DNA of 64,000 nt from Planctomycetia bacterium (lineage in GTDB: Bacteria > Planctomycetota > JAJSAM01 > JAJVHW01), in contig JANNHP010000312.1 in assembly GCA_031404455.1 (NCBI GenBank), forward strand, positions 25,780 through 89,779, read 5' to 3'. Shown here piece after piece: positions 840-53,718 of the stretch. The notes under the pieces were generated by a model that saw only the letters and a list, made by a program, of their open reading frames with translations, ran no database searches and was not told the origin of the DNA. The position numbers and the translations under genes are program-made. The first letter of the stretch is position 1. Each line of letters opens with the position of its first letter.

Positions 840-852
840 CGGATCTCTCCTC

Positions 853-2445: not shown

Positions 2446-2512
2446 AGGTCCGTTCGGGCGCCGCGGTCCACGAGGGCCGCGGTCCGGCCCTCGTGCGTGC
2501 CGCGGCGGCCGG

Positions 2513-3982: not shown

Positions 3983-4494
3983 GCCGCACCTCCGCTCTCG
4001 CCGCCCTGGCCGAGGTCGCCCGCCAGCTTGGCGAGGTCCTCCTGGTTCTTCAGCACGCGCTCGAGGAGAGAGTCGAGCTCGTCGGAGCGGTCCGCCTTCG
4101 AGAGGAGGTCGCGCAGCTTGTTGCGCGTCTCGATGAGCTTGCGCAGCGGCTCGACCTGGTTCGCGACGCGCGCGGGCTCGAAGTCCGCCATCGAGCCGAA
4201 CTTCAGCTCGACGCCGATCTCGCTGCCGTCCTTCTGGAGCGTGTTCTCGACCTTCATCTTGAGACCGGGCGTCATCTTCGACATCACGTCGTCGAAGTTG
4301 TCGCGGTCGATCTGCACGAACTTGCGGTCCTTCAGCGGCTTGAGCGCCGTCGTCGGGTCGCCCGAGAAGTCGCCCATCACGCCGACGACGAAGGGCAGCG
4401 TCTTCTCGACCATCGCCCCTTCGGTCTCGACTTCGTAGCTCAGGTGGACGCGCGGCTTCCTGACGCGTCCGAGCTTGTCATGGATACTCGCCAT
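3979..4494 (-). CDS. tssB: T6SS contractile sheath small subunit TssB/VipA
   Basis: 171 aa. Conserved TssB core ([27 protein letters not shown]). Immediately upstream of tssC. Confidence 0.9.
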
Positions 4495-4621
4495 CGGTCG
4501 GTTCCTCCCTCGGTCGCGTTTCGGTGCGGGGCATGCTGCCCGGGTTCGCGGGCGGCCCGCACGCGGTTCGGCATCCTAATGTCCGGCTTCCGCGATCCAC
4601 AAGCAGCGTCTTCAGCCCCCG

Positions 4622-5719: not shown

Positions 5720-5756
5720 GGGAGTGACCTCCGGAACTGTGGGCCTGGCACGCGTC

Positions 5757-7283
5757 TCACGCCGGAGCGCGGCCGCCGGGCCGCGGCGTCCTGGCACACG
5801 CCTCGTCGATGCTCCTGAGCAGCCGGTCCTCGGTGGCGCGGTGGACCCGCCGGATCTGCTCGACGAGCTCCAGCGCCTCCGCGTAGTCGGCGATCTGGCT
5901 CTCGATGACGCGGATCGCGGCCGCGGGCACGCCGTCGAGCATCGCGGGGCGCCCCTTGTCGTCGAGGTAGATCAGCGTCGAGGCGCCCGACGCGACGTCG
6001 CCGGTCACGCTGGCCGAGCTCGCGGCGGTCGACGCGCGCACGAGTCGTCCCGAGAGCAGCGGTCCCGCGGCGAGCTGCCGGATCCTCGCGTCGATCGCGT
6101 CGGTCCCCGACATCGGCGCGGCGGGCTGCGCGGTGATCGGCGCGCCGTCGGGCGCCTCGACGAGGATCCCCGCCGTCGTCGGCGCGTCGGTCTGCGGCGG
6201 GCGGGCGCGCACGTCCGCGCTCGCCGTCGTCACCTCGGGTCCCATCTCGCCCGTGATGTCGCCGTCCGCCGTGGCGGGCTCGGCGGACGCTCCCCCGTCG
6301 GGCGGGAGCGCGGGCACGAGCGGCGCGACCTCGGGCGGCGGGAGCGGGTCCCCGGAGATCTCGAGGACGGTCGCGACCGATGGGGACCCTGACGACCAGC
6401 GGCGCTGGAACGCATCGAGCGCGCGCGCGTCCGGCGCGACCGCGGCGGCGCCGCGGAAGCCGATGCTGTCGGCGCGACGGTAGCCGTCGGCCGGCGCGAG
6501 GATGAACCCGAGGTCGGCCGCGGAGAGCGGACGGTGGAACACGAAGAGCGACGGTCCGGGCGCGCTCGCGTGCCTCACGAACAGCGCGCCGTCCAAGTCC
6601 TCAACGTCGAGCCGGCGAGTGAGGATGTGCATCCACCCCGCGGCCTCGGCCTCCGGATCGGTGGCGTGGACGAGCCGCATGCGCAGCGCGAACTCCGGCA
6701 GCTCGGCCGCCCCGCGCAGCGCATCGGCGTATCGCTGGAGCTCCTGCAGGTGCAGGCCGAACGGAGCGGCGTCGTCGCGCCGCAGCAGCGCCCCGTGCGC
6801 GCGGTCGACGAACGCGTGCCAAACCGCGTCGGCGTCGAGAAGCGCCGGCGCCGGCACGTCGAACTTGGCGTACTGCTCGCGGATGCTCTTGAGCCGCGCC
6901 GCTTGCGCGCGAATCTCCCGGATGCCCTGCCACACCGCTGCGGCCGCGATCAGCTTGCGCGGTCCGTGCGGCTCGAGCTGCGCCTCGGGGTACGACGCGA
7001 AGATCGCGAAGGGGAACCGGCGCCCCGCCGCGTCGCTGCTCGGCCACATCGCGCCGACGAGTGCGCGTCTCGTCCCGGGCGGCCGCCACGCGAACGCGAT
7101 CGTCTGATCGGCGGCGACCACGGCGTCGGGGGGCATCGCGCTCGTGCCGTCGGCGAGCCAGCCGGTGAACGCCTGCGCCTCGGCGCCCTCGGCGTTCAGG
7201 CTGACGAAGTCGCCGTAGGTCGGCAGCTTGCCGAAGCACCCGAACCGTATCTCTGGCATGCGCTGCGAGCCGAAGAGGCGCAT
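5757..7283 (-). CDS. tagF: T6SS-associated TagF/ImpM family protein with ~300 aa C-terminal extension of unknown function
   Basis: 508 aa. N-terminal TagF signature (FGCFGKLPTYGDFVS, about 200 aa). Low-complexity Pro/Ala/Thr linker, then a C-terminal ~80 aa domain. No PP2C phosphatase motifs. Confidence 0.7.
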   Translation of the reverse strand: MRLFGSQRMPEIRFGCFGKLPTYGDFVSLNAEGAEAQAFTGWLADGTSAMPPDAVVAADQTIAFAWRPPGTRRALVGAMWPSSDAAGRRFPFAIFASYPEAQLEPHGPRKLIAAAAVWQGIREIRAQAARLKSIREQYAKFDVPAPALLDADAVWHAFVDRAHGALLRRDDAAPFGLHLQELQRYADALRGAAELPEFALRMRLVHATDPEAEAAGWMHILTRRLDVEDLDGALFVRHASAPGPSLFVFHRPLSAADLGFILAPADGYRRADSIGFRGAAAVAPDARALDAFQRRWSSGSPSVATVLEISGDPLPPPEVAPLVPALPPDGGASAEPATADGDITGEMGPEVTTASADVRARPPQTDAPTTAGILVEAPDGAPITAQPAAPMSGTDAIDARIRQLAAGPLLSGRLVRASTAASSASVTGDVASGASTLIYLDDKGRPAMLDGVPAAAIRVIESQIADYAEALELVEQIRRVHRATEDRLLRSIDEACARTPRPGGRAPA

Positions 7284-7324: not shown

Positions 7325-10300
7325 TCATCGCGGCAGGATCCTCACGCAGGTCTCGGGCAGCCGCGTGTCCTCCGGCGCCGCGTTCAGCCGGCGGATGCGG
7401 TCCGCGTTGGCCGTGACCAGGCGGAACTTCGCGTGGTCGCCCTTGAACTCGCCGGTCCCCTCCCAGTCGAGCGCGTCGGAGGAGGTTCCGAGGCCGCTGG
7501 TCAGCGCCGCGACGACGCAGTCCGGAGTGGTCCACGCGCGGAACGTCTTCGAGTCGTTCGTCCGCTCGTTGCGCATGCGGATCGTGAAGTACTCGCCCTT
7601 GTTCGGGGCGAACGTGAACGAGAGCTGCTTCGCGGCGTTGGGCAGCCACTTCTCGGTGGCCGGCGCCTTGCCCTGCTGCTTGTACTCCACCTCGACGAGC
7701 GGGAAGCCCTTGTCGGACTGGCTCGTCGGCACGGCCACGCACTCGATCGTCACCGTGATCTCGTCGAACGCTCCGGGCCCGAGCGTCGCGGCGGCCTGCT
7801 CGAAGCGGCCGACGAACTCCGGCGGGAGCTCGAGCCGCCGGCCCGGCGTGTCGGCGAGGGAGTCGCCGAAGAAGACGACGAAGGCACCGCGCATCCGGGC
7901 CATGGCCTGGCTCGCCGAGCTCGTCGATTCCGGCGACGGGGATTTCAGCGCCGCCTCGATGCGCTGGCGCTCGAGCGACCAGTTCCGGTTGAACCAGTCG
8001 CGCAGCCGCGTGACGAGATCTTCTTCTCCCGCGGCGAGCGCCGCGACGAGGGCCGCCTTCGCGTCGCCGAACGGGCCGTCCTCGGGCAGACGATCCACCG
8101 CACCCGGCTGACGCCACGCCGGCGACGCCGCCGAGCGGCCGAGCTTCGTGGCGAACTCCGCGAGCGACGCCTCGGAGACGTCGCGGCCGGCGCACTTCCT
8201 CAGTTCGTCGGCGGCCCGGCTGCCGCTCGCGACTCCCGCGACGAACGCGCGGTAGCGGGCGATCGGCTTCGCGAGCTTGGCGCGCCAGATCGCCGCGGCG
8301 CCCGAGTCGCCCGCCGTGTCGGCGTCGAACCGGCTCACGCGATCCTCGCCCCAGTTCTGCGTCACGAGGGCGGCGAGCCGTCCGATCGCGCCCGCCGGAT
8401 CGGCCCACGCGTCGATGCAGGACCGCCAGCTCCCGGTGTCGGCGGTCTCGGCTCGGATGCGCTGCGACCACTGCGACTCGGCGGTCGTGACGACGACTCC
8501 GAAACTGTCGGCCACGCGCGCCTCGATCGCCTTGAGGAGCGGCTCCGAGACGAGACGGTTCTTCGCTCCGAGGTCGAGCGGCGCCGCGAGCTGCGCGAGG
8601 TCCTTGTCGAGATCGGCGATACCGGGCGGCGGACGTCGCGCGGTCTCGATGCGCTGCGCGTACGAGGCGAAGCCGTCGGGATCGGTGACGAACTCCTCGA
8701 GCATGCGCTCGAGCCGCAGCGCCTCGCCGAGACGGATGACCGGGTGACGCTGCAGCGTCTCCGCAGTGGAACCCTCGACGAGCGGGAGGAGCTGCTGCAC
8801 CACGGTCTGCGCCCACGGTCCCTGCTTCGAGCGGAACGTCGCGTCGAGCGCGATCGTCGCCTCGGACATCCCGATCGTCACCTGCCACGTCCGCCGCTCC
8901 GCCGGCGACGTCGGCCCCTCGGCGAGGAGTTCGGCGGTCGCCTTGGCGAGCGTGTCGAGCGCCGTCAGCATCCGCCCGCTCGCCTCCGCCTGCGGCGCCG
9001 CGGCGCCCGACTTCACGCGGTCGGCCTCGGCTTGCGCGTACTGCCGGACCGCGGCGTATCCCTCGATCGCGGCGAGCTGCGCGTCCGTGCGCACCTTCGC
9101 ATCGGCGAGCGCCTTCAAGCTCTCCGCGACCGATCCGAGGATCGAGAGGTCGGCGGACGCCGCGGGTCCCGGTCCCGCGGGCGCGGGCTCCGTTGCGAGC
9201 GTCGCGGCGATCGCCTCGAGTTCGCGGCGCAGCTTCTCCTTCGGCACGTTGGCGCTCTGGAGGAGCAGGTCCGCGTGGGCGCACTCCTTCAGGAACGCCG
9301 TCCGGCGCGAGTCGATCTGGGCGCTCGTGCCCGCAGAGATCGCCGAGCGCGAATCGAGCGCCGCCCGCACGCGGCGCAGGTAATCGGCGACGCGCGCGTC
9401 GAACGCCGCGTCGACCGATTCCATCGCCTTCGCCGCCGTCTCGTCGATGCCGCCGTTGCGCCACGCGACCGAGAGGAGCCGCGCGATCTTGCGTTCGGGC
9501 GTGTCCGTTCCGGCCTTCGGGAGGATTCCCGCGGCGACGAGTTCCTCGGCGCGCGCCGTCAGCGCCGCCATCTCGTCCGGCGAGAGCACGCCCGGCGGCA
9601 GGTCGTTCGGATCGGGCGGCGCGGCGCCTTCCTTCGGCGGTTCGGGCGGCGGCGACTTCGTCGCGGCGGGCGGCGCGGTCTTCGCGGCGGCGATCGCTTT
9701 CAGCGCCGAAGCCGTCACGAGGTAGTCCCGGTACGCGGCGACGAGCGGCGCGAGTCCGCCCGCGCCCGTCACGTCGGCGGTCTCGATCGCCTTCCTGCGC
9801 GACTCGAGGAGGGCGCCCACGATCTCGGTCCGGTAGAGACCCGCCTCGCGGTCGGCCATCTCCTTCTGGAGCGGCAGCGGGAGGCTGAGGCCGAGGTTCT
9901 TCCACACTCCGAAGGTCGCCTGCCGCTGCTGCGCGAAGAGACCCTCGCAGCGCGCGAGCACACTCTCGTCGGCCTTGCGCGAATCGCGCAGCGACGCCTC
10001 GACGGCCTCCATGTCGTGGCGCGCGCACGTGCCCGCGGCGAGCACGGCGAGGAACCCGAAGACGCCGAGCGAGCTCGCGGTCAGGTTCATCCCGAGACGC
10101 TTCAGCTTGCCGCGCTCGATCTCGTGCTGCGTCGTCCACGTCATGCCGTGGTCGAGCACGATCCGCTCGCGCATCAGGTCTTTCACGAAGTACGCGTTCT
10201 TGATGAGCACGCCCTGCGCGTCGGCGTCGACCGCGGGCGCGCCGAGGAGCTGTCGCACGCGCGACGCGGCGCGCTGCAGCGGAGTGCCCTGCTGCGTAGC

Positions 10301-11389
10301 GCTCGTGACGTAGAAGCCCCGGTAGAGCGGCGTCTCCTGGTAGACGTTCGGCTCGAAGAGGCGAGCCATCATGCGCCCGAAGGGTTCGCCGAGTGCTGCG
10401 AGCTCGTCGGGGAATCCGAACGCCGCGGGGCGATCGCGCAGCTTCGCGGCACCGACCATGAGCGGCCTGAGTTCGCGCAGCTTGTGGATCAGGTCCGTCC
10501 AGCGCCGTTCGAAGAGCGACTGGTTGAACCGCGCGCCCTCGTCCTGCTCCACCGTCCAGCCCATCATCTGCTGGCGAGTGGCGGCGTCCGCGTTGCCGAA
10601 GAACTCCACGAACCCGCCGACGAGGTCGACCTTCGTCAGCACGATCCACACGGGGAAGTTCACGCCGAGGTGGTCGATGAGCTCGTCGAGCCGCGCGCGG
10701 ATGCGGCGCGCCTCCATCTCCTGCTCGGCGTCGCTGCGCTCGATGATGTCCGCGGCGGGGATGGCCACGATCACGCCGTTGATCGGCGCGGCCGTGCGGT
10801 GGCGGCGCACGAGGTCGAGGAACTGCGCCCATTCGTCCGCGTGCTCGTCGGACATGTAGCGCCCGGCGGTGTCGAGGAACACGCCGACGTTCGAGAACCA
10901 CCAGTCGCAGTTGCGCGTGCCCTGCAGGCCCTTGATCGCCGCGTCGCCGACCGGAAAATCGATTCCCGACTGGCGCAGGAGCGTGCTCTTGCCGCTCGCC
11001 GGCGCGCCCATGATCACGTACCACGGCAGCATCGCGAGCGCGCGGCTGCCGCCGCCGCCGACGGCAGTGCCCTTCAGCTTCCCGACGCTCTCCTTCCAGT
11101 TCTTGCGCAGCGCCTCGATCTCGCCCTTCTGGTCGTAGCGGCCGGTGCCCGACGCGAGGCTGTCCTCGAGCCGGCCCGCTTTCATGCGGCGGCGCATCCA
11201 TCCGGCGAGGAGCACGCCGAGGACCACGAGCAGCGCGACGACGAAGACGACGACGGTCCAGAAGACGCACCGGGCGGGCGGCAGGCCGACGGCGTTCGTG
11301 ATCCCGTACGCGATCCCGCCGAGGAGCAGCGGCACGATGAGCAGCGCGAGCCGCGGCAGGAGTTCGCGGAACTTGCCCGGCGCGCTCAC
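7325..11389 (-). CDS. tssM: T6SS membrane subunit TssM/IcmF
   Basis: 1354 aa. N-terminal TM helices, Walker A GAPASGKST. IcmF-like size and position between tssL and tagF. Confidence 0.9.
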   Translation of the reverse strand: MSAPGKFRELLPRLALLIVPLLLGGIAYGITNAVGLPPARCVFWTVVVFVVALLVVLGVLLAGWMRRRMKAGRLEDSLASGTGRYDQKGEIEALRKNWKESVGKLKGTAVGGGGSRALAMLPWYVIMGAPASGKSTLLRQSGIDFPVGDAAIKGLQGTRNCDWWFSNVGVFLDTAGRYMSDEHADEWAQFLDLVRRHRTAAPINGVIVAIPAADIIERSDAEQEMEARRIRARLDELIDHLGVNFPVWIVLTKVDLVGGFVEFFGNADAATRQQMMGWTVEQDEGARFNQSLFERRWTDLIHKLRELRPLMVGAAKLRDRPAAFGFPDELAALGEPFGRMMARLFEPNVYQETPLYRGFYVTSATQQGTPLQRAASRVRQLLGAPAVDADAQGVLIKNAYFVKDLMRERIVLDHGMTWTTQHEIERGKLKRLGMNLTASSLGVFGFLAVLAAGTCARHDMEAVEASLRDSRKADESVLARCEGLFAQQRQATFGVWKNLGLSLPLPLQKEMADREAGLYRTEIVGALLESRRKAIETADVTGAGGLAPLVAAYRDYLVTASALKAIAAAKTAPPAATKSPPPEPPKEGAAPPDPNDLPPGVLSPDEMAALTARAEELVAAGILPKAGTDTPERKIARLLSVAWRNGGIDETAAKAMESVDAAFDARVADYLRRVRAALDSRSAISAGTSAQIDSRRTAFLKECAHADLLLQSANVPKEKLRRELEAIAATLATEPAPAGPGPAASADLSILGSVAESLKALADAKVRTDAQLAAIEGYAAVRQYAQAEADRVKSGAAAPQAEASGRMLTALDTLAKATAELLAEGPTSPAERRTWQVTIGMSEATIALDATFRSKQGPWAQTVVQQLLPLVEGSTAETLQRHPVIRLGEALRLERMLEEFVTDPDGFASYAQRIETARRPPPGIADLDKDLAQLAAPLDLGAKNRLVSEPLLKAIEARVADSFGVVVTTAESQWSQRIRAETADTGSWRSCIDAWADPAGAIGRLAALVTQNWGEDRVSRFDADTAGDSGAAAIWRAKLAKPIARYRAFVAGVASGSRAADELRKCAGRDVSEASLAEFATKLGRSAASPAWRQPGAVDRLPEDGPFGDAKAALVAALAAGEEDLVTRLRDWFNRNWSLERQRIEAALKSPSPESTSSASQAMARMRGAFVVFFGDSLADTPGRRLELPPEFVGRFEQAAATLGPGAFDEITVTIECVAVPTSQSDKGFPLVEVEYKQQGKAPATEKWLPNAAKQLSFTFAPNKGEYFTIRMRNERTNDSKTFRAWTTPDCVVAALTSGLGTSSDALDWEGTGEFKGDHAKFRLVTANADRIRRLNAAPEDTRLPETCVRILPR

Positions 11390-12132
11390 TTCTTCTCACC
11401 GCTCTCAGGCGCGGACCGCTCGGCCGCGAGCATCTCGCCGATCCTCGTGCCCTGAGCGCTCCAGAGGACGAACCAGAGCCCGACCGCCAGGGCGGCGGAG
11501 AGCGGGATCGGCCACCACCAGAACCAGCCCTTGCCGAGGATGCGTCCCTTCGGCGCGTCGCGGTACGCCTCGCTCCAGACGCGGCGGCGCGCGGCCTCGG
11601 GGCCCTGCGGCCAGAGCAGCGCGACGATTCCGTTCGCGAGGGCGTCGAGCTCGCCGGGGTTCGCACTGCGGTACCTGCCCCGGAACCCGAGCCGGAGACA
11701 TGTGTAGAAGACCTCGAGCGCTCCGAGCACTTGCTCACGCAGCGCGGGATCCTGGACCCCCGCGAGCTGTTGCCGCAGACGGTTGACGCGCTCGAAGAAC
11801 TCCTGGCCCGCGAACGACGTGTTGAAGTGCCGGAGCTCCAGGAGGAACCGGCTCCACTGCTGCGCGTGGTCCCAGTCGCTGTGCAGGCCGAGGTCGTCGG
11901 CGAGCGCCACGACCGCGTACTTCGCCTGCGTGTAGATGTTCCAGTCGAGTCCCGACGACCGCGCCGACATGTCGGCGCCGGCGAGGAGTTCCTCGAGCGT
12001 CCGGTGGAACTGCGCCGGCTGCAGCCGGGCGCGCGTCGATTCGCTGTGGAACGCGGCGATCGCGAGGAAGAAGCCTCGGAAGCAGCCGGTCAGGGCCGCC
12101 CGGGAGGATCCCGCCTCAGCGGCCGAAGACAA
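11386..12132 (-). CDS. tssL: T6SS membrane subunit TssL (DotU/ImpK family)
   Basis: 248 aa. DotU-like cytoplasmic domain plus C-terminal TM helix (WWPIPLSAALAVGLWFVLW). Upstream of tssM with a 4-nt overlap. Confidence 0.8.
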   Translation of the reverse strand: MSSAAEAGSSRAALTGCFRGFFLAIAAFHSESTRARLQPAQFHRTLEELLAGADMSARSSGLDWNIYTQAKYAVVALADDLGLHSDWDHAQQWSRFLLELRHFNTSFAGQEFFERVNRLRQQLAGVQDPALREQVLGALEVFYTCLRLGFRGRYRSANPGELDALANGIVALLWPQGPEAARRRVWSEAYRDAPKGRILGKGWFWWWPIPLSAALAVGLWFVLWSAQGTRIGEMLAAERSAPESGEKK

Positions 12133-13540
12133 CGTACGCCTCCATGCCGAGGTCGGGTGCCGCGCCGCCGGGGACGAGCCCCTCGGTCGCGAAGTGGATG
12201 ACGAGCGTGCGCTCCGAGATCACCGCGCGCCACTCGTCCTGCGCCTCCGGACGCGCGGACGCGTCGTTCTGGAGCCGGTAGTAGACGGCGCCGCTGCGGC
12301 TCGGCAGCTCGCGGGGCTTCGGGCACGGCGCGACGGGCACGCCGTACTTCCTCTGCGCGACGATGTTCGCGATGCGCGTGGCCGCGCCGACCTTCACGTG
12401 TCCGCTGCGGTAGAAGTCGCGCTCCGCGCCGGGCGGGTCGGGGCTCGCGAACGCGAGGTAGACCTGGTTGCGGGCGTTCAGGAGTGCCGGGTCGAGTCCC
12501 GAGGCACCGACGGCGAGTCCGCCGATGCCGAGGTCGCCGCGGGTCAGGGGGACCCGGCGGAAGTTCGCGGCGAGCTGGTCGGCGCGGAGCAGCGCGAGCA
12601 AGGGGCGCGCGACCAGGTCGAAGCACTCGCCGATGTTCGCGTGGTCGTAGATCGGGACGTTCGGCATGGAGGCGCCCGCGCAGAGCGTGGCGAACTGCCC
12701 GAGCAGGCTGCAGAGCAGGTGGTAGACGTCGTAGGGGTGCGGTCGTCCGCCGTCCGCCGCTTCGCGGAGCCAGGGCAGCGCCGCACGCAGGATCTGCAGC
12801 TTCCAGAGCTGGATCACCTCCGCCTCGGTCGCGTTGCCCGCCACCATGTCGGCGACCGACGCGCCGCCCGCGAGGTCCGCCGCCTTGCCGGCGGCCTCTC
12901 CGAAGATCTCCTTCACGAGCGCGTGGACGCCGGACGCCGCGGAGAGCCGCAGCGACGGCGGAGCCCACGCGGCGGAGAGGCGCGACGGCGGCAGGCCGAC
13001 CGCGGGCGCCACGAGCTGCGCGATCGGCACCGTCTCGAAACCGTCGGTCCGGTCGCCGTCGAAGAGCAGGCGCGCGTTCAGCCTGAGGAAGTGGACGTCC
13101 TGGAGGTTGCGGCCGGTCACGAGGTCGGCCACGGTCTCCGTCGCGCGCACGTAGCGCGGCGGATCGGTGTCGTCCTCGTGCGTCTCGCGCACGTTGGGCT
13201 CGTGGTCGCGCAGGCGCCGGGCGCCGACGTGGACCGTGAGCGGGCTCGGCGCGCCCTTCGGGATCTCGCGCGGCGCCAGCGACGCGTTGCCGCCCCCGCG
13301 CGCGTCGAACACGAGAGCCTCACCGCCCGGCAGCATCACCTCGAGCGAACGGACCTCGAAGAACCCGCGTTCGAGCTGGAGCGGGTCCACGTCGATCTCG
13401 GCGACGCCGAAGCGGTACGGCGCGGCGTAGCCGAGCTGGCGCGCGCCGAGCGCCATCGCCCCGTGGGCCTGCTGCTGCATGTGGTGCGGCAGGAGGAAGA
13501 GACCTTCCTCCCAGAGGACACCCCTCGGGATTGGACACAT
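12116..13540 (-). CDS. tssK: T6SS baseplate subunit TssK (ImpJ/VasE family)
   Basis: 474 aa. N-terminus VLWEEGLFLLPHHMQQQ matches the TssK family start. Position between tssJ and tssL. Confidence 0.85.
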   Translation of the reverse strand: MCPIPRGVLWEEGLFLLPHHMQQQAHGAMALGARQLGYAAPYRFGVAEIDVDPLQLERGFFEVRSLEVMLPGGEALVFDARGGGNASLAPREIPKGAPSPLTVHVGARRLRDHEPNVRETHEDDTDPPRYVRATETVADLVTGRNLQDVHFLRLNARLLFDGDRTDGFETVPIAQLVAPAVGLPPSRLSAAWAPPSLRLSAASGVHALVKEIFGEAAGKAADLAGGASVADMVAGNATEAEVIQLWKLQILRAALPWLREAADGGRPHPYDVYHLLCSLLGQFATLCAGASMPNVPIYDHANIGECFDLVARPLLALLRADQLAANFRRVPLTRGDLGIGGLAVGASGLDPALLNARNQVYLAFASPDPPGAERDFYRSGHVKVGAATRIANIVAQRKYGVPVAPCPKPRELPSRSGAVYYRLQNDASARPEAQDEWRAVISERTLVIHFATEGLVPGGAAPDLGMEAYVVFGR

Positions 13541-13697: not shown

Positions 13698-14195
13698 CTA
13701 CTTCGAGGGCCCGACGTTCGTCTCGTCCATCGTGAACCGGACCGCGTGCACCGGCTTCGTCACCTTGTACTCCGGCCGGCCGCTCGCGCAGTCGATGGGG
13801 ACGATCGCGGTGCGCGTGCCGCGCGTGTAGAGCGCGATGAGGCCCACGTGCGTGTAGAGCGAATCCTCGCCGACGTCGAGAGTGCCGGAGCGCTCGGACG
13901 CGGGCTTCATCCACTCGCCGAGGTCGAAGGCCTTCCCGAGCTGCGGGAACTTCTCGGAGTTCTGCGCCGAGGCGAGGTCATCGGGGCGCTCCGACGCCAT
14001 CTTCGCGAAGAGCACCGCGTCGCGGACGGCCCAGGCCTGGAAGCGCACGTGCTGGGCGCCCTGACCCGAGTTGTTCAATCTGTCTGTGGAGGCGACGCTC
14101 ACCTCGACCCGGTCGCCCTTCGCGACGCAGGTGCTGCCGCACCCCGCGAGCGCGAGGATCGCGAGCGACCCGGACAGCGCGACGTGAAGCCTCAT
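13698..14195 (-). CDS. tssJ: T6SS outer-membrane lipoprotein TssJ (SciN-like)
   Basis: 165 aa. Signal peptide with lipobox LALAGC. Size and position typical of TssJ. Start overlaps the stop of the upstream gene (ATGA). Confidence 0.6.
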   Translation of the reverse strand: MRLHVALSGSLAILALAGCGSTCVAKGDRVEVSVASTDRLNNSGQGAQHVRFQAWAVRDAVLFAKMASERPDDLASAQNSEKFPQLGKAFDLGEWMKPASERSGTLDVGEDSLYTHVGLIALYTRGTRTAIVPIDCASGRPEYKVTKPVHAVRFTMDETNVGPSK

Positions 14196-17077
14196 CGTGG
14201 TCTCCTCCCCTCGCGCGCGCGCCGCTTCATGAGCTCGCGCCGCAGGTGTTCCTCGAACGACGGATCGTAGAAGCGCGCGATCAGCTCGCCGAGACCGGCG
14301 TCCATCCGCTGCAGGATATCCTGGACCTTGATCTTCTGCGCCGACGACAGCTCGAGCTCCTTCTGGAACGCAACGCCGAGCGTGAGCAGCAGGCGCCGCG
14401 ACCCGTCCTTCGTCGAGCGGCCGTGCGCCTCGACGAGGAGTCCGATCGTCGAGCCGAGCGACGTCTTCATCGCGCGCAGCGTCTCGACGCACTCCGCGAT
14501 GCGCGCGGCGGAGTCGGGGTCGCCGCGGCCCGCGGACGCGAGCGCTTGCCGCACCATGCGCTGCAGGTTGCGCTGCTCGGAGGCGAACTCCTGGCCGCCG
14601 AGCTCCGCGACGGCGTCGCCTAGGGTGCCGAGCGTCTCGAGTCCCTCCGCGAGGAGCGTGCGGACGAGCACCGCGGCGGGGTCGTCCGGCGAGAGCGGGA
14701 CCGCGGCCGAGCTGCCGGGTTCCACGAGCGATTCCGTGAGGGCGCTCCAGAGACCCTCGTCCGCCGCCGGCGGCGGAGGAGGAGGCGCGCGCTCGACGCG
14801 CGCTCTCGCCATCGAGAGGGCGTCGACTTCCGACTGGAGGCGCGCGATCCGCGCCGCGCCGGAGCGCAGCGATTCCTCCAGCTCGCGGATCCGCGCGTCG
14901 CGCTGGTCTGCGCCCGCCGGCTCGGCGGGCTTCGTTGCGACGTGCGCCGGAGCGCTCGGGCGGCGCTCCGCCGGGATTCGCAGGCGGAGTTCCTGTACGC
15001 GCGTCAGGAGACGTTCGACCGGACGCGCGAACCGCGCGGGGTCCGGGTCCGCGTGCAGGCTGTCCGCGAAACCGACGCCGCCGCGCGTGAGGCACGCGGC
15101 TGCGATCGCGAGCACCTCGGCCCAGATCTCGGGCGGGATGCGGCCCTCGCCGGAGGGCCGCTCGCCGGGGTAGAAGCAGACGTTCTTCGGCGAGAGGAAG
15201 CCGTCGAGCGGCGGCGTGCTCGCGAGCTTCGCGAAGACCTCGACGAGGTCGTCCCACGCGGTGCGGCCGTCGTGGTCGTGCACCGCGCGGCAGAGCGACG
15301 CCGCCGTCGGCACCACGTCCGCGGCGATCCGCTGCACCGACTGCGACGCGTTGTCCAGCATCGCCCGGAGCAGAAGCATCCCGAGCGAGTGCAGGTCGTA
15401 GTACGCGCCGTACGTTCGGTACACGGTCGCCGTGCCGAGGAGCGCCGTCTTGCCGGTCGCTGCGCGCAGATCGAGGAGCTTGCCGGAATCGAGACGCTGC
15501 GGGAACGCCCTGAGCGCGAGCGGGCCGGGCGCGTGACGCTCGGTGTCGCGGCGGCACCAGAGGACGCTGCGCTCCCAGCCGGGCGAGCTGATCTCGATTC
15601 GCACCCGGTCCGTGAGGTCGGCCTTCGACTCCACCCCGGCGAGGCCCTCGACGTCGAGTTCGAACTCCGTCGTGCCGGCCGCCTCGTCGGTCCACACGCG
15701 TCCGACGGAGATCCTCACCGGCGCCGTTCGTGCCCATCGGAACCCGCCCTGGTGCACGTCCGGACCGTCGGGCGGCGCCGTGCCGCGGGGCTCGGCGGCG
15801 CGCGCGACATCGGGGTGCGCGTACGGCTCGACGGCCTCCGGGGGGACGAGCCAGATGACCGGCCCGGGCGGCGGAGACATGACGTCGTCGAGCGCCGGCG
15901 CGCGCAGTCCGCCGCGGATGGCGACGTCGTACTGCTCGCCGGGAGCGACGAAGAGGCGGTGCGAGACGATCGCTCCGGGCGAGAGGCCGAGGTGCGGACG
16001 GCCGTGCGTGCGGTGATACCCGGCGACCGCCTGCACGACGGCCTCGAAGAGCTTCAGCTTCTCGGCGAGCGCGTCGAGCGGCCGGGCCGCCTCCGCGCGG
16101 CCGACGAGCTCCGTCTCGAGCCGTTCGCGCGACTGGCGCCGTCCCGGGAGCGTCCAGTTGGCGACGTGGCGCGCTCGGAACGCGGCCCACGGCGCGCCGC
16201 CGAGGATGTCGCACTGCTCGCCGAAGTCGGCGACGTCCTCGCGGTGCGCGATCGCGCGGAACGGGAGGAACGAGATCGGGGCGAGCCGCTTCGGCGCGAG
16301 CGGCGGACCCGGCGGCGCCGCAGTCGAACCGCGCGCGGGCCGCGAGTAGCACTTCGGGACCTCGGGACATCCGATGCAGGGAAAGCTCTCCGCGAGCCGC
16401 GAGACCGAGGCGTCGCCCGCGGCCTCGCGGTCGAAGATCCGGCCGAGGTCCTTCGCGAACCGCTCGAACGTTCCGACGTCGGCGAGTGCGCCGCGGACGG
16501 GCCGCGGATCCGCCGAGTAGAACTGCGCCGACGCGCCGCGACCCTGCCGCGGGTCGTAGAGGAACCGTTGCGTCGTCGTGGTCCACGCGGGAAGCCTCGC
16601 CGCAAGGAGCGTGTCCGCGTCGCGGCACTCCGCGAGCTCTCCGCCCGCGGAGTGCGGGGACGGTGGACGGAAGACGACGCCGCGCTCGCGGCAGACGAGG
16701 AGCGGCGCGTACTCCTCGTAGCCGAGATCCGGGACCTCCCCCGATTCCGCGTGCGCCGCCGCCGCGATGGCGCGCCGCCGCCACATCGTCTCGATCGCGG
16801 CGTTCCCGGCGTGCGGTCCCCACGTGGCCGGGAGGCGCGCGGGATCGACGACGTCGCGCTGGACCTCGAGCAGGTACGGCGCTCCGCTCGACGAACGGGC
16901 GCGGAAAGTGCGCGCGAGGGCGTCCTCGTGCACGGGGAGCGCATCGCCGGGAGACCCGGTCGGCGGCGGCGCGCTGCCGTCGCGCGACCAGGCCAGATCG
17001 CGGACGTCGGCGTCGCGGCGCCCGCCAGGGACGTCGCGCATCTCGGACTCGCCGATGATCTGCGTTCGTTCGTCCAT
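14192..17077 (-). CDS. Large T6SS-cluster protein with degenerate Ser/Thr protein-kinase-like region (pseudokinase candidate) and C-terminal coiled coil
   Basis: 961 aa. Start taken at internal Met (MDERTQIIGE); the ORF tool merges it into a 1389-aa frame. A central region resembles a kinase catalytic core but with substitutions: YHRTHGRPHLGLSPGAIV where HRDLKPxNIL is expected, DVAIRGG where DFG is expected, and later DLHSLGMLLL resembling subdomain IX. Sits between the FHA gene and tssJ, where TagE/PpkA sits in imp-type clusters. Confidence 0.5.
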   Translation of the reverse strand: MDERTQIIGESEMRDVPGGRRDADVRDLAWSRDGSAPPPTGSPGDALPVHEDALARTFRARSSSGAPYLLEVQRDVVDPARLPATWGPHAGNAAIETMWRRRAIAAAAHAESGEVPDLGYEEYAPLLVCRERGVVFRPPSPHSAGGELAECRDADTLLAARLPAWTTTTQRFLYDPRQGRGASAQFYSADPRPVRGALADVGTFERFAKDLGRIFDREAAGDASVSRLAESFPCIGCPEVPKCYSRPARGSTAAPPGPPLAPKRLAPISFLPFRAIAHREDVADFGEQCDILGGAPWAAFRARHVANWTLPGRRQSRERLETELVGRAEAARPLDALAEKLKLFEAVVQAVAGYHRTHGRPHLGLSPGAIVSHRLFVAPGEQYDVAIRGGLRAPALDDVMSPPPGPVIWLVPPEAVEPYAHPDVARAAEPRGTAPPDGPDVHQGGFRWARTAPVRISVGRVWTDEAAGTTEFELDVEGLAGVESKADLTDRVRIEISSPGWERSVLWCRRDTERHAPGPLALRAFPQRLDSGKLLDLRAATGKTALLGTATVYRTYGAYYDLHSLGMLLLRAMLDNASQSVQRIAADVVPTAASLCRAVHDHDGRTAWDDLVEVFAKLASTPPLDGFLSPKNVCFYPGERPSGEGRIPPEIWAEVLAIAAACLTRGGVGFADSLHADPDPARFARPVERLLTRVQELRLRIPAERRPSAPAHVATKPAEPAGADQRDARIRELEESLRSGAARIARLQSEVDALSMARARVERAPPPPPPAADEGLWSALTESLVEPGSSAAVPLSPDDPAAVLVRTLLAEGLETLGTLGDAVAELGGQEFASEQRNLQRMVRQALASAGRGDPDSAARIAECVETLRAMKTSLGSTIGLLVEAHGRSTKDGSRRLLLTLGVAFQKELELSSAQKIKVQDILQRMDAGLGELIARFYDPSFEEHLRRELMKRRAREGRRPR

Positions 17078-17082
17078 GCGGA

Positions 17083-18543
17083 TCAGCCCCGCGCGCTCGC
17101 GACGACGAGCAGCACGATTCCCGCGGTGATCGCGACGATCATGCTGACGACGCCGGTCACGAGCCACCCCTTGTGCGACGAGCCGCGCCGGGCGACGACG
17201 CGCGGCGACGGTCCGGCACCCGGCGCGGGCGATTCGCGCCGGGGTGCGACGGCCGGCTCGTGCGGGATGGCGGGAGGCGGCGCCGCGGCGTAGGCCACGG
17301 GAGGCGGAGGAGGAGGAGGGACGGACGGTCCGACCGGCGGCGGGCCGGACCACGAAGGTCCCGGCGGCGCGCCGCCGGCGGGGACGTCCCACGCCGGAGG
17401 CGGAGGCGCGGGCGCGACCGGGGCGGCGGGCACGTCCCACGATGCGGGGCCCGCGGCGGCACGCGGCGCGGCGGCCGCAGCCGTCCAGTCGGTGGCCGCG
17501 GCCGGGGCCGTGTCGGACGACGCGGGACGATAGGGCGGGGGTGCGGGAGCGGGAGGAGGAGGTGCTGCCGCCGGCCTCGACCAGTCGGGCGCGGACGACT
17601 GCGCGGCGGAGTGGGCGACCTGATCCCATCGGGGCGGGTCGTCGGTCGCTGCGCGCGGACCGGGCCCTCGCTGGACCTCGGGTGACGGGGCGGGAGCGGG
17701 GGCCCAGCGAGTCTCGCGCTGAACGGGTTCCGCGTCGGCCCGCGCTCCGAACACCGACGCCGACGACGCAGGTGCCGCGGCGTCTGCCTCCGTCACGACG
17801 CGCACGTCCACCGGCCCGACGCCGACGATGTCTCCGTGGGCGAGAGGCGTCTCGCCGAAGATCGGACGCCCGTTGACCCGCAGAGGGTTGCGGGCGCCCG
17901 CGGCGCGGATGTAGATCCGCGTCCCGTCGTAGCGGGCGAGCGCGTGACGCCGCGACACCGAGCCGTTCGCCACGGTGAGGTCGCAGCCCGCCGCGCGGCC
18001 GATCACATATGCCCGCTCGAGTTCTCGCAACTCGAGCCGGCCGGTCTCCGGCGGGCACGCCACGAGCGTGGGGACGACGCGACCGGCCGGGCCGGGCTCG
18101 GCGCCGCCCGCAGGCAGGTGCGTCGGTTCCGCTCCCGCCACCTGCGTCATGAAGCTCGCGCGGGCCATCGTCATGTCGGCCGACGAATCGCGCATCGGCT
18201 CGACCTCGGGGAGGATCGTCTCCCGGCCGTACGACGCGCGGAACACGTACTCGGCGATGACGAACGTGTCGCCGTCCTGTACGCGCCGCGGCTGTCCGTG
18301 CGGGATCGCGACCCCGTTGACGAGCGTGGGCGTGAGGCTTCCCTGGTGCGTGGCGTGCCACGCACCGTGGAGGAGGTCGAGCGTCACGTGCGTCCGCGAG
18401 ATCCCGTCGCCCTCGATGAGGATGAGGGACTGCGCGCTGCGGCCGATGGTGACCGGCCCCGACTCGAACTCGAACGTGCGCGGCGAGCCGCGTCCGGCGT
18501 CGCGCGAGTTCGTCAGGTCGAGTCGCAGGTTCACGCCGCGCAT
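17083..18543 (-). CDS. fha: Tandem-FHA domain protein with Pro-rich linker and C-terminal TM helix (T6SS Fha/TagH-like)
   Basis: 486 aa. Two FHA domains (GPVTIGRSAQSLILIEGDGISRTHVTL.., and YVIGRAAGCDLTVANGSVSRRHALARYDG..VNGRPI). Long poly-Pro/Ala segment. C-terminal TM helix (LVTGVVSMIVAITAGIVLLVV). First gene of the T6SS operon. Confidence 0.8.
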   Translation of the reverse strand: MRGVNLRLDLTNSRDAGRGSPRTFEFESGPVTIGRSAQSLILIEGDGISRTHVTLDLLHGAWHATHQGSLTPTLVNGVAIPHGQPRRVQDGDTFVIAEYVFRASYGRETILPEVEPMRDSSADMTMARASFMTQVAGAEPTHLPAGGAEPGPAGRVVPTLVACPPETGRLELRELERAYVIGRAAGCDLTVANGSVSRRHALARYDGTRIYIRAAGARNPLRVNGRPIFGETPLAHGDIVGVGPVDVRVVTEADAAAPASSASVFGARADAEPVQRETRWAPAPAPSPEVQRGPGPRAATDDPPRWDQVAHSAAQSSAPDWSRPAAAPPPPAPAPPPYRPASSDTAPAAATDWTAAAAAPRAAAGPASWDVPAAPVAPAPPPPAWDVPAGGAPPGPSWSGPPPVGPSVPPPPPPPVAYAAAPPPAIPHEPAVAPRRESPAPGAGPSPRVVARRGSSHKGWLVTGVVSMIVAITAGIVLLVVASARG

Positions 18544-18654: not shown

Positions 18655-19185
18655 TCAGAACGATCCCTTCGAGCTGATCTTGCCCTTGACCACGCGTCCG
18701 ATGTCCGGTCCCGCAGCGACCGTTCCCGCGAACTTGATCTTGCCGTTCCAGCTCTTCTTCACGCCGCCCGTCGTCTGGCGGCCGGTCACCTTCGCCGAGA
18801 CCGAGGTGACGTCGATGTCCACCTGGTGGAGATCGAGGACGAACGCGTCGGCGACCGCGCGCAGTTCCGGCGTGTCGGCGGCCTTGACGGTGGCCGACCT
18901 GCGGTCGCGGCCGATCGTCGCCGTCCCGGTGAACGTGCCGTACTTCCCGAGCGTGAGGTCGTAGGCGCCGGAGAGTCCGCCGATCGAACCTGAGAGCGCG
19001 ACGTCCGCCGTCGCCTTGACAGGACCGGGCGCCTTGGACCTGGCCCGGAAGAAGGACAGGAACACGATGAACGCCGCAAGCGGGTTGCCCTGGTCGACCA
19101 GACTCTCCACGGGAAAGCATCCGCCCACGAGGAGCGCCGCCGCCGTGAGCCCCGCCGTCGCACGCGTCACGATCCACTTCCGCAT
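18655..19185 (-). CDS. Hypothetical lipoprotein
   Basis: 176 aa. Signal peptide with lipobox (LLVGGCF), Gly/Thr/Lys-rich. Lies 110 nt upstream of the T6SS fha gene. Confidence 0.45.
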   Translation of the reverse strand: MRKWIVTRATAGLTAAALLVGGCFPVESLVDQGNPLAAFIVFLSFFRARSKAPGPVKATADVALSGSIGGLSGAYDLTLGKYGTFTGTATIGRDRRSATVKAADTPELRAVADAFVLDLHQVDIDVTSVSAKVTGRQTTGGVKKSWNGKIKFAGTVAAGPDIGRVVKGKISSKGSF

Positions 19186-21121: not shown

Positions 21122-22384
21122 GTGTACAGTCGCACGCGGACAGGACTTCTCAGGGAGGCCCGTATGGACGACTTCGACCTTCGGCTCGGCGGAGCCCGTA
21201 TCGGGAATCTGCGCAGGCGCGAACTCCTGCGGATGGCGGGACTCGCCGGCGTGAGCGTCGCGTCGGCGGCGGTGCTGGGTCGCGCGGCCGATGCCTTCGC
21301 CGCGCCCGACGCGCCGAAGGCGTCGCCGTACAAGACGAAGCACGTGATCCTCCTCGCGTTCGCCGGCGGCGTGCGCGCCCGCGAGGTCATCGGCGTGAAC
21401 TCGGCCGCGCCGAACCTCATGAAGATCGGCGAGAAGGGCTGCGTGATGCCCAACGTGAAGGCCGCGAACCTCGGCCACTACGGCGCCGCGCTCGCGATCT
21501 TCACCGGCTGTCCGGAAGCGCAGGGCATCCGCCAGAACTACCGCGGCGAGAGCCCGACGGTCTTCGAGTACCTGCGCAAGGACGCGGGGCTCCCCGCCGA
21601 CCAGGTGTGGCTCTCGACGACGGCGGGCGCCCAGACGATCAACTTCTCGTACAGCGAGCACGAGGACTACGGCGCGAAGTACGGCGCCAACCTCATCAGC
21701 ACCGACGGACTCTTCAACACCGAGTTCCGCAACCTCGTCTCGGGCTTCGGCAATGTCTCGCTGCCGACCGAGAAGGAGCAGCAGCAGGTCGCGGATCTTT
21801 CGAAGGCGCTCGATCCGAAGTTCCTGGAGGGCGTGAAGGACCGCTCGTTCGCGAACGACCCCGAGGCGGCGATGCGCATCCAGCGCTACATCCTCGAGGA
21901 GCTGAAGGGCGACACGGCCGACCTCACGGGCCCCGGTGCCGGCGACGCGAAGGCGATCCGCGTCGCGCGCAATCTCCTGCGCCTCTTCAAGCCGAAGGTC
22001 ATCGCGATCGTGCTGCAGAACGCCGACGTCGCGCACGGGAGCTACAACTCGTACGTGGAGGTCATCCGCCGCAACGACCAGGAGGTCGGGGCACTCTGGC
22101 AGTCGGTGCAGCAGGACACGGAGCTCCGGGACTCGACGTCGATGTTCGTCCTGCCCGAGTTCGGCCGCGACCACAACCTGAACGAGCGCAACGGACTCGA
22201 CCACGGCGACGGCTCCGAGGACCTGCAGAAGGTGTTCTGCATCGCCGCGGGCCCGGACTTCAAGCAGGGCAAGACCCTCCAGGCCGGCGCGAACTCGTTC
22301 GACGTCTGCCCCACCGTGGCGGAACTGCTCGGCGCGAAGACGCCGGAAGCGCGGGGCAAGTCGTTGAAGCAGCTCATGGCGTAG
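21122..22384 (+). CDS. DUF1501 family protein (sulfatase-like fold) with twin-arginine signal
   Basis: 420 aa. Tat motif RRRELLRMAGLAGVSVASAA. DUF1501 C-terminal signature (VLPEFGRDHNLNERNGLDHGDG). Confidence 0.75.
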   Translation: MYSRTRTGLLREARMDDFDLRLGGARIGNLRRRELLRMAGLAGVSVASAAVLGRAADAFAAPDAPKASPYKTKHVILLAFAGGVRAREVIGVNSAAPNLMKIGEKGCVMPNVKAANLGHYGAALAIFTGCPEAQGIRQNYRGESPTVFEYLRKDAGLPADQVWLSTTAGAQTINFSYSEHEDYGAKYGANLISTDGLFNTEFRNLVSGFGNVSLPTEKEQQQVADLSKALDPKFLEGVKDRSFANDPEAAMRIQRYILEELKGDTADLTGPGAGDAKAIRVARNLLRLFKPKVIAIVLQNADVAHGSYNSYVEVIRRNDQEVGALWQSVQQDTELRDSTSMFVLPEFGRDHNLNERNGLDHGDGSEDLQKVFCIAAGPDFKQGKTLQAGANSFDVCPTVAELLGAKTPEARGKSLKQLMA

Positions 22385-22387
22385 CCG

Positions 22388-32640: not shown

Positions 32641-32817
32641 GTTCGCCTCCTGAAAGCACAATGGCATGTGGGTCAACAGTCGAATGCTACCACCAACGGT
32701 CACATTCCCATCGTACCCCGCGCCGGGGACATCGACAGCGCCGGCGGAATCGCCACGGAATCCGCCATCGACGCCGTCCACGCGCGCTGTATTCGTTTGT
32801 AATACTTCCCCCGACGG

Positions 32818-50904: not shown

Positions 50905-50957
50905 CGGCGGCCGGAGGCAGGCCCGGAACCGAGCAGCGAGGCGGCGCCCCCGAGACC

Positions 50958-53717
<2,760 letters not shown>

Positions 53718-53718
<1 letters not shown>

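Follow-up and report, generated by a model that had tools for sequence, protein, structure and literature searches.

A predicted pseudokinase beside a tandem-FHA protein in a Planctomycetota T6SS operon

The T6SS cluster described here raises the following question: what could serve as its control switch, given that its operon opens with a tandem-FHA protein followed by a kinase-like protein of 961 aa? T6SS threonine phosphorylation is carried out by the PpkA (TagE)/Fha1 (TagH)/PppA (TagG) system, as described for the H1-T6SS of P. aeruginosa, for S. marcescens and for A. tumefaciens (PMC3953482). A preliminary description of the locus had suggested a scaffold-only pseudokinase variant of this pathway. 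The window, i.e. the whole stretch of DNA that was analysed, comprises 64,000 nucleotides of contig JANNHP010000312.1 from a Planctomycetia bacterium, and all genes discussed below lie on its minus strand.

The operon and its tandem-FHA protein

The T6SS operon opens with an ATG open reading frame at 17083-18543, which encodes a 486-aa analogue of TagH/Fha, while the second gene, also an ATG open reading frame, occupies 14192-17077 and encodes the 961-aa kinase-fold protein, a predicted pseudokinase; independent assemblies give identical calls for both. The stop codon of the FHA gene (TGA, 17083-17085) and the ATG of the 961-aa gene at 17077 are 5 nt apart, and at the other end of the 961-aa gene its TGA and the start codon of the following gene share the four letters ATGA (14192-14195), so that the 961-aa gene is translationally coupled on both sides, downstream to the run tssJ-K-L-M-tagF-tssA-B-C. 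This run begins with a TssJ-like lipoprotein of 165 aa (13698-14195), recognized by reading its signal sequence and Cys lipobox; its orthologues in five other loci (L004, L008, L005, L011 and L014) match PF12790 (T6SS-SciN), while the window copy has no Pfam match. There follow tssK (12116-13540; PF05936, E=7e-59), tssL, or DotU (11386-12132; PF09850, E=4e-33), tssM (7325-11389; PF14331, E=1e-70), tagF (5757-7283; 508 aa, PF09867 with E=1.6e-17, and TIGR03373) and, identified by their Pfam matches, tssA, tssB, two tssC paralogues and tagJ/impE (39-5797). The cluster runs past the left window edge, continuing as ImpE-TssE-TssF-TssG and then a probable ClpV N-terminus, as seen in locus L009.

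The 486-aa protein resembles TagH/Fha in having an N-terminal FHA domain with phosphothreonine-binding residues and in lying inside a T6SS cluster. It matches Pfam FHA (PF00498, E=3e-25) in two stretches, reaches 80 bits with TIGR03354 (TagH) against a cut-off of 120 bits, and gave no match to PF20232 (T6SS_FHA_C) in Pfam, having a Pro-rich linker and a TM anchor instead. FHA domain 1 (approximately aa 31-100; 18244-18453), read from the translation and the second Pfam stretch, carries GR, SRTH and NG, and FHA domain 2 (aa 179-243; 17815-18009), which is the best Pfam stretch, carries GR, SRRH and N and aligns to the FHA domains of GarA and Rv0020c with the binding residues matched. In other words, the Gly-Arg, Ser-x-x-His and Asn residues are intact in both domains, in the window protein as well as in one full-length orthologue (L004). 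The linker (aa 250-457; 17173-17796), delimited by composition and orthologue alignment, is rich in Pro and Ala (27% and 26%, respectively, of residues 251-460) and has W-D at residues 306, 369 and 385, in WDVP motifs whose columns are conserved in four orthologues. The C-terminal TM anchor (aa 458-486; 17086-17172) is the sole hydrophobic segment of the protein, with a 19-residue Kyte-Doolittle maximum of 2.7 at residue 464, and both the anchor and the RRGSSxKGWL that precedes it are conserved in all four clade loci. This architecture, which is kept in the orthologues of L004, L003 and L008, is the one that the preliminary description had reported, i.e. two FHA domains, a poly-Pro linker and a C-terminal TM helix, and it differs from that of Fha1 (TagH) in the second FHA domain, the membrane anchor and the lack of T6SS_FHA_C.

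Kinase fold and catalytic positions of the 961-aa protein

Is the second protein a kinase at all? Compared with Pfam, NCBIfam and the PDB sequences, it yielded no recognized match and no usable result; in particular, the Pkinase profile (PF00069) does not match it, and even the best-scoring member of the wider family, at 26.1 bits, stays below the cut-off of 31.7 bits. A TM segment was sought and not found (the maximum 19-residue Kyte-Doolittle score is 1.41), and neither was a VWA domain, by Pfam. That said, a profile of the family, when compared with the PDB sequences, matches kinases best, at the catalytic loop, the DFG motif and alphaF. What is more, when hhalign was run against four aligned kinase sequences, two of them entered by hand, the probability was 97.6% (E=3.5e-12) over 250 columns spanning the whole kinase domain for the spliced sequence, with splice points picked from the structural model, and 44% and 27% for the unspliced one. 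The AlphaFold model itself, built on a 100-sequence alignment, has a pLDDT of 86.1 and a pTM of 0.78 (a poor model from only five sequences, with a pLDDT of 45.6, was set aside) and is bilobal, as in a kinase-like fold, its N-lobe comprising beta1-5 and alphaC and its C-lobe alphaE to alphaI. Together, the spliced alignment and the model uphold the similarity to a kinase core that had been claimed for this gene. Judging from sequence and model, the 961-aa protein is predicted to be cytoplasmic, with a complete Hanks-type kinase fold broken by two inserted modules.

The N-lobe segment with beta1-beta3 and alphaC (aa 48-128; 16694-16936), placed by the columns of the family alignment (A5), is followed by insert 1 (aa 129-262; 16292-16693), which is Cys-rich and zinc-ribbon-like by its Cys column statistics and the clade sequences, and in which the window subclade has lost four (140, 143, 175 and 178) of the nine Cys of the family. 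Insert 2 (aa 446-553; 15419-15742), between the activation segment and alphaF, is beta-rich (modelled strands at 451-553, pLDDT >90), and Foldseek relates it to FAD-binding beta-barrels, weakly only (E ~0.3). The second part of the C-lobe (aa 554-705; 14963-15418) runs from alphaF, where YDLHSLG aligns to the kinase DxWSxG, through the terminal helices, and the alphaF residues Asp561 (139/147 sequences) and Gly566 (138/147) are near-invariant. Finally, a C-terminal extension (14207-14905), delimited by the AlphaFold helices and confined to the window clade, comprises a coiled coil (aa 725-763), a Pro stretch and a helical domain (aa 774-957). Scanned separately against Pfam, the two inserts and the C-terminus gave no match. 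Two origins for the C-terminal domain were considered and rejected, namely a disguised T6SS_FHA_C (hhalign probability 0.2%) and homology to the small genes located after the family gene in L011 and L005 (BLASTP E >0.7).

The catalytic positions tell a different story from the fold: all five are substituted, with Glu71 for the beta3 Lys, Arg102 for the alphaC Glu, Gly364 for the Asp of HxD, Ala369 for the Asn and Gly389 for the DFG Asp. In the catalytic-loop region, residues 354-371 read YHRTHGRPHLGLSPGAIV, and the loop equivalent proper, HRTHGRPHLGLSPGA (aa 355-369; 15971-16015), which also has Ser366 in place of the Lys, aligns to HLDLKPQN of ULK3 and HRDIKPAN of PknB. Arg-Gly-Gly (aa 388-390; 15908-15916) aligns to the DFG motif, in a family where the DFG-Asp column holds Asp in 70/147 sequences and Gly in 57/147. 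Both readings agree with those of the preliminary description and confirm the catalytic substitutions that it had pointed out at the HRD and DFG equivalents (Gly364 and Gly389); the VAIK Lys is replaced as well (Glu71). The glycine-rich loop is absent as well, the corresponding stretch being EDALARTFRA. Across the family alignment, Lys occupies the beta3 position in 105/147 sequences and Glu the alphaC position in 92/147, and the paired states are K/E in 86 sequences, a swapped E/R in 7 and L/A in 8; this covariation supports a beta3-alphaC contact. Operationally, a pseudokinase is a kinase fold missing at least one of the VAIK Lys, HRD Asp and DFG Asp, and here all three are missing. With all five residues for ATP/Mg binding and phosphate transfer lost, the sequence supports the prediction of a pseudokinase.

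Could the protein still be an active atypical kinase, or some other nucleotide-dependent enzyme, which uses relocated residues, as WNK, SelO and SidJ do, and which phosphorylates the FHA protein or TssL in place of PpkA? In line with such activity, the clade conserves Arg and His around the former active site (H355, R356, H362, R388 and R392), and the full Lys/Glu/Asp/Asn/Asp set is kept by about 7% of the family, although by only that fraction, one example being P0032, which belongs to a complete T6SS locus. Since this fraction exists, the family ancestor may have been active. However, the window protein lacks all five canonical residues and the glycine-rich loop, the Glu/Arg charge swap preserves the structure while removing the contact to the ATP phosphates, and the best structural match is itself a pseudokinase, the eukaryotic IRAK3 domain (PDB 6ruu), a likeness of fold only, at 8% sequence identity. 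For these reasons, we find an active enzyme unlikely here. Two of the arginines, Arg388 and Arg392, are invariant gains of the window clade around the old DFG and could, by analogy with what has been proposed for ULK4 and DLHK, allow metal-independent binding of a nucleotide or phosphate.

The family and its genomic partners

The family of the 961-aa protein comprises more than 600 clusters, and those of its source names that give an organism are all Planctomycetota. T6SS core genes or TagH adjoin the family gene in all nine loci examined: each of the five close homologues is encoded immediately upstream of tssJ-K-L-M, and wider family members adjoin TagH and/or tssJKLM. An FHA domain is fused to the kinase-like protein in 11 of 154 representatives (~7%), and 7 of 40 scanned members carry T6SS_FHA_C. 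Throughout the family, the constant genetic partner is the FHA protein (TagH/Fha), adjacent or fused, where the tssJKLM operon begins. Two further searches, one for homologues with a 60-sequence alignment and one for loci in the genome collection with the clade alignment, returned, respectively, only the same five close proteins and a single locus that was already known.

The kinase-like family forms a lineage of its own and is not more closely related to PpkA than to other kinases. The window protein differs from PpkA in lacking the catalytic residues, a TM segment, the periplasmic VWA domain and a Pkinase match in Pfam, and in having the two inserted modules. The size of the family, its distinct architecture and its frequent occurrence alongside a canonical Pkinase gene led us to reject the idea of a recently decayed PpkA. 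Nor does the protein look like a decaying, functionless relic of a PpkA-like gene, as one might suspect from the loss of the catalytic residues and of four of the nine zinc-ribbon Cys in the subclade. Namely, intact full-length orthologues at 44-51% identity, with many invariant columns, are spread over at least six metagenomic lineages, the fold is predicted confidently by AlphaFold, synteny and translational coupling are conserved, and the subclade has gained a conserved C-terminal domain of its own, all of which makes decay extremely improbable.

The family appears to be undescribed and lacks annotation. Our literature searches on a T6SS pseudokinase or a T6SS regulator of Planctomycetota found nothing relevant, and a review (PMC12599244) mentions neither T6SS, nor Planctomycetes, nor zinc; among the bacterial pseudokinase families described there (ActPs1-3, GLW, CP1, DYD and DLHK), the accounts given of CP1 and DLHK do not fit.

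Which enzymes could write or erase a phosphothreonine in this system? Pfam scans of the gene-sized open reading frames found no Pkinase or PP2C match in the 64 kb of the window or in 5.7 kb of L009, the window-clade loci seen contain neither gene, and in TagF, searched for PP2C with Pfam and NCBIfam, TagF_N was the only domain. The cluster, as far as it is visible, consequently shows neither a PppA (TagG) nor a TagF-PppA fusion, just as the preliminary description had stated. These absences, along with the position of the 961-aa gene, translationally coupled at the head of tssJKLM, would suit a structural adaptor, in the T6SS membrane complex or its baseplate, that works independently of phosphorylation, with the FHA domains binding unphosphorylated partners and with no threonine-phosphorylation input. 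Against such an adaptor, which we consider rather doubtful, stand the intact phosphothreonine contacts of the FHA domains in the window protein and L004, as well as the canonical Pkinase gene found next door in three of four wider-family loci. The same two observations weaken the scaffold-only half of the earlier proposal, which was too strong; its pseudokinase half stands, all five residues being gone. Phosphorylation by a kinase encoded elsewhere is the more likely input.

A proposed mechanism and its meaning

The best mechanistic analogy is MviN/FhaA/PknB. In M. tuberculosis, PknB phosphorylates the pseudokinase MviN, to which FhaA then binds (Gee et al. 2012, summarized in PMC12599244), so that there, too, a dead kinase domain meets an FHA protein, at a docking site created by a separate active kinase. 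The analogy has its limits: MviN serves peptidoglycan synthesis and not a T6SS, there is no sequence kinship beyond the fold, and the membrane-bound partner there contains the pseudokinase, while here it is the FHA protein that is membrane-anchored, in a putative interaction. EssB/YukC, the pseudokinase scaffold of T7SSb (PMC12599244), is likewise a dead kinase fold acting as a structural or recruiting part of a bacterial secretion machine, although in another secretion system and phylum, and EssB, which sits in the membrane as a monotopic protein, has no FHA partner.

In our judgement, the 961-aa protein is probably a kinase-fold pseudokinase, of a Planctomycetota T6SS family with FHA partners, and its dead domain would most likely act as a docking platform. 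We infer every interaction in what follows, as well as the direction of regulation. A conventional Ser/Thr kinase, with its gene elsewhere in the genome, would phosphorylate a threonine, either on the pseudokinase or on the linker of the FHA protein; such action in trans is likely because both FHA domains keep their phosphothreonine-binding residues. A candidate target, guessed from six or seven sequences, is Thr5, which is invariant and belongs to the motif M-[DE]-x-x-T-x-x-[IVL] of the disordered N-terminal tail. The membrane-anchored partner would bind the phosphothreonine with its two FHA domains, and the resulting complex would license the TssJLM membrane complex and the TssK baseplate to assemble, with TagF as a separate brake.

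More broadly, and more tentatively, the family may represent an unrecognized, phylum-wide control module of Planctomycetota T6SSs, a possibility to which we would give somewhat less than even chances: a kinase fold with zinc-ribbon and beta-barrel inserts, serving mainly for non-catalytic FHA docking and having lost catalysis repeatedly and independently. The window clade would be its extreme, having lost the five catalytic residues and about half of the zinc ligands, swapped the charges of the Lys-Glu bridge, gained a new C-terminal domain and replaced TagH by a membrane-tethered tandem-FHA protein. If true, a pseudokinase component would here be described for the first time in a T6SS, and bacteria would have a second secretion-machine pseudokinase, after EssB/YukC in T7SSb. 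To our knowledge, nearly everything understood about the post-translational control of T6SS firing comes from the PpkA-Fha-PppA system of a few Proteobacteria. A whole phylum appears to use another, mostly dead, kinase-fold partner for its FHA proteins, which annotation pipelines label "hypothetical", and a family model made from our alignment would unite several hundred such proteins. Ranging from the full catalytic set to fully dead members, the family is also well suited to studying the passage from kinase to pseudokinase, for example through the charge-swapped salt bridge. In particular, it provides a defined and testable candidate for the gating of T6SS assembly in Planctomycetota.

Layout of the T6SS cluster and its surroundings

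The window is ~72% G+C, and codon-position GC was used to sort real genes from the many spurious ORFs. A T6SS cluster on the minus strand fills the window's left end up to position 18543. By Pfam gene assignment, it comprises impE/tagJ (39-839), two tssC paralogues of 530 aa (853-2445) and 489 aa (2513-3982), tssB (3979-4575), tssA (4622-5797), tagF (5757-7283), tssM (7325-11389), tssL (11386-12132), tssK (12116-13540), a gene for a 165-aa lipoprotein (13698-14195) whose orthologues in other loci match the TssJ family, the gene for the 961-aa protein (14192-17077) and that for the 486-aa FHA protein (17083-18543), all on the minus strand. Only 5 nt separate the FHA gene stop from the ATG of the 961-aa gene, whose own stop overlaps the tssJ start in an ATGA, so that these genes are expressed as a single unit. 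Past the window edge, the cluster goes on in another assembly of the same organism with tssE, tssF and tssG, followed by what is probably the N-terminus of clpV. On its 5' side, the FHA gene is flanked by trpF and an unrelated lipoprotein-like ORF. The latter (176 aa, 18655-19185, minus strand) directly adjoins the FHA gene; it matches no family and has no conserved counterpart in the homologous locus L004.

The tssC (VipB) paralogues stand in tandem after one tssB, and in two homologous loci (L004, 6481-8316; L011, 20090-21598) VipA and VipB domains share a single gene, which looks like a TssB-TssC fusion. As stated in the preliminary description, TagF lacks a PP2C domain, with only its N-terminal TagF domain being matched. 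Its C-terminal extension of ~200 residues (aa ~310-508) consists of a Pro/Ala-rich stretch followed by ~100 aa without a Pfam match; TagF measures 527-530 aa in loci L003 and L004, and only 314-327 aa in loci of the wider family. Among gene-sized ORFs across the window, neither Pkinase nor PP2C has a Pfam match, so that the claimed lack of a phosphatase gene holds for the part of the cluster lying within the window.

Elsewhere, dnaA, dnaN and gyrB follow in a row (47573-53718, plus strand), with parB ~15 kb away (31762-32868, minus strand), and the window probably includes a chromosomal replication origin region. A 732-aa histidine kinase (43997-46195, minus strand; GAF, HisKA, HATPase_c) matches the family of Arf small GTPases at its N-terminus (E=1.8e-5; 24.7 bits, the cut-off being 22.3). 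At 21122-25324, on the plus strand, the gene for a DUF1501-like protein precedes that for a multi-haem cytochrome c of 978 aa, which has c7/c3 motifs and an LVIVD repeat. Finally, a 730-aa protein (40189-42381, minus strand) matches the Rossmann-like domain of bacillithiol synthase BshC (E=1e-46), and its gene, adjoined by a PIG-L deacetylase and a GT4 glycosyltransferase, may belong with them to a bacillithiol-like thiol pathway.

Fold and active site of the 961-aa protein

In direct searches the 961-aa protein matched nothing in Pfam, NCBIfam or PDB sequences, and a word-indexed search returned no more than four relatives, among them one protein whose name assigns it to a Planctomycetes MAG. 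In an exhaustive profile search, the number of cluster representatives recovered was 847 at E<=1e-3, falling to 606 at E<=1e-10 and to 106 at E<=1e-30. Family members are mostly 700-760 aa long, their product labels read "hypothetical protein" or "FHA domain-containing protein", wherever a source name includes an organism it is Planctomycetota (or Planctomycetes), and NCBIfam holds no model for them. The top PDB-sequence matches of a 60-member profile are protein kinases (ULK3, a LAMMER kinase, twitchin, DAPK3 and titin), with the family motifs PHL-x-L-x-P-x-N-[VI], I-D-L-G-S and C-D-L-x-x-L-G aligned on the catalytic loop, DFG and the alphaF motif, respectively.

The AlphaFold model reached pLDDT 86.1 and pTM 0.78 with 100 family sequences (pLDDT 45.6 with five). 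Foldseek with the whole model gave no significant match; in structural comparison, the IRAK3 pseudokinase scored 17.7 over 249 aligned residues (3.1 A), M. tuberculosis PknB 15.9 and the T6SS kinase PpkA 14.9. Two modules are inserted in the model, at residues 129-261 and 446-552. With both spliced out, 147 family sequences were compared by hhalign with an alignment of four kinases and matched it over 250 columns, corresponding to PknB residues 9-272, with 97.6% probability (E=3.5e-12). If the inserts are left in, the match splits into two parts, with probabilities of 44% and 27%. The spliced test calls for caution, in that its splice points were taken from the model and two of its four kinase sequences were entered by hand, the other two being Pfam-verified kinases from loci of this analysis. 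No transmembrane segment occurs in the protein. The first insert (window 16292-16693, minus strand, aa 129-262) is where the family has a nine-Cys pattern (C129, C140, C143, C151, C175, C178, C234, C237, C243), suggestive of an insertion with two zinc sites in the N-lobe/hinge region of the kinase. Of these nine, the window subclade has lost Cys 140, 143, 175 and 178 and retains five.

Catalytic-residue states were read from the 147-sequence family alignment. The beta3 Lys (Lys in 105 sequences) is Glu71 in the window protein, the alphaC Glu (Glu in 92) is Arg102, the HxD Asp (Asp in 50, Gly in 32, Ala in 29) is Gly364, the catalytic-loop Asn (Asn in 47) is Ala369 and the DFG Asp (Asp in 70, Gly in 57) is Gly389. 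Lys, Asp, Asn and Asp are kept together in only 10 of the 147, all 10 of which also keep the alphaC Glu. Near-invariant are the structural landmarks Pro361-His362-Leu363, Pro367, Asp561 and Gly566. Moreover, the Lys and Glu positions covary (K/E in 86 sequences, L/A in 8 and a swapped E/R in 7, namely four of the window clade plus the representatives P0076, P0096 and P0107), which is what a conserved beta3-alphaC contact predicts. In the window protein the salt bridge seems to persist with its charges reversed, and the ATP contact is lost.

Both the profile alignment and the predicted structure therefore bear out the initial impression of a kinase-like protein with substituted catalytic residues: together they show a kinase fold without catalytic residues. 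One could argue, from the clade-conserved Arg and His residues near the old active site, that it is an atypical active enzyme; this is unlikely, since all five catalytic residues and the glycine-rich loop are missing. That the gene is a decaying relic is contradicted by intact orthologues at 44-51% identity, the confident fold prediction, the gain of a C-terminal domain and translational coupling.

The FHA partner and neighbouring genes

The tandem-FHA architecture noted earlier, with its Pro-rich linker and C-terminal transmembrane helix, was recovered in full: Pfam matches FHA in two stretches (E=3e-25), Pro and Ala make up 27% and 26% of residues 251-460, and the sole hydrophobic segment is 458-486, at the extreme C-terminus. 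With the TagH model TIGR03354 the protein reaches 80 bits, short of the 120-bit cut-off, and Pfam and NCBIfam scans show no T6SS_FHA_C domain. The one full-length orthologue, in L004, shares the tandem layout; the linker WDVP motifs, an RRGSSxKGWL motif and the tail anchor are common to it and two C-terminal fragments (L003, L008). The short W-D-V-P motifs, repeated in the linker (window 17173-17796, minus strand; columns 380-400 of the orthologue alignment A8) and conserved in four orthologues, may be linear binding motifs. The phosphothreonine-contacting Gly-Arg, Ser-x-x-His and Asn are kept in both FHA domains, the second of which aligns residue for residue with the FHA domains of mycobacterial GarA and Rv0020c. 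Judging by these residues, both domains still look able to bind phosphothreonine.

Directly downstream of close homologues of the 961-aa protein lie tssJ-tssK-tssL-tssM (5/5 loci), with tagF, tssA and tssB next wherever the contig reaches far enough. Neighbourhoods of four distant members were also looked up. In L011 the member is followed by two small genes and tssK-L-M-tagF; in L012 it is fused to FHA and T6SS_FHA_C, ahead of tssJ-K-L-M; in L014 a member with the full catalytic set precedes TagH and tssJ-K-L-M-tagF-tssA; and in L010 a member and TagH stand with core genes absent nearby. An FHA domain occurs in 10 and T6SS_FHA_C in 7 of 40 scanned members, and among the 154 best representatives 11 are fused to an FHA domain. 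At the genetic level the family is obligately paired with FHA proteins, at the start of the operon for the membrane complex.

The visible parts of the window-clade loci hold no Pkinase gene. A canonical one does stand beside the kinase-like/TagH module in L010 (6418-9789, minus strand), L012 (1251-4808, plus strand) and L014 (8008-9917, minus strand, paired with an FHA-GAF-HTH_8 regulator), which suggests a trio of kinase, pseudokinase and FHA protein in these lineages. This bears on the preliminary description, which proposed a scaffold-only (pseudokinase) variant or a different signal input. While a phosphorylation-independent scaffold fits the absence of kinase and phosphatase genes from the visible region, it has against it that the FHA pockets are intact and that kinase genes adjoin the module in relatives. 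The earlier interpretation is thereby supported in part, its pseudokinase half standing, and considerably broadened.

A putative docking platform and its precedents

Within the searchable literature, no description of a T6SS-linked pseudokinase or of this family was found, and a 2025 review of bacterial pseudokinase families mentions neither T6SS nor Planctomycetes (PMC12599244). The components of the module, namely a kinase fold, an FHA domain, the T6SS phosphorylation pathway and pseudokinase scaffolds, are of kinds already known. For T6SS, the canonical pathway has been described together with the Agrobacterium TagF-PppA fusion (PMC3953482). Among secretion machines, the nearest precedent for a pseudokinase component is EssB/YukC of T7SSb, and the closest worked precedent for the docking proposed here is the mycobacterial pseudokinase MviN, which PknB phosphorylates and FhaA then binds (PMC12599244).

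On the most likely reading, the 961-aa protein would serve as a docking platform without catalytic activity. A conventional kinase, with its gene elsewhere, would phosphorylate a threonine of either the pseudokinase or the FHA linker; a speculative candidate is Thr5, an invariant residue of the disordered N-terminal tail, with a hydrophobic residue at +3 in most clade members. The membrane-anchored tandem-FHA protein would then bind that phosphothreonine, and the resulting FHA-pseudokinase complex would license assembly of TssJLM/TssK.
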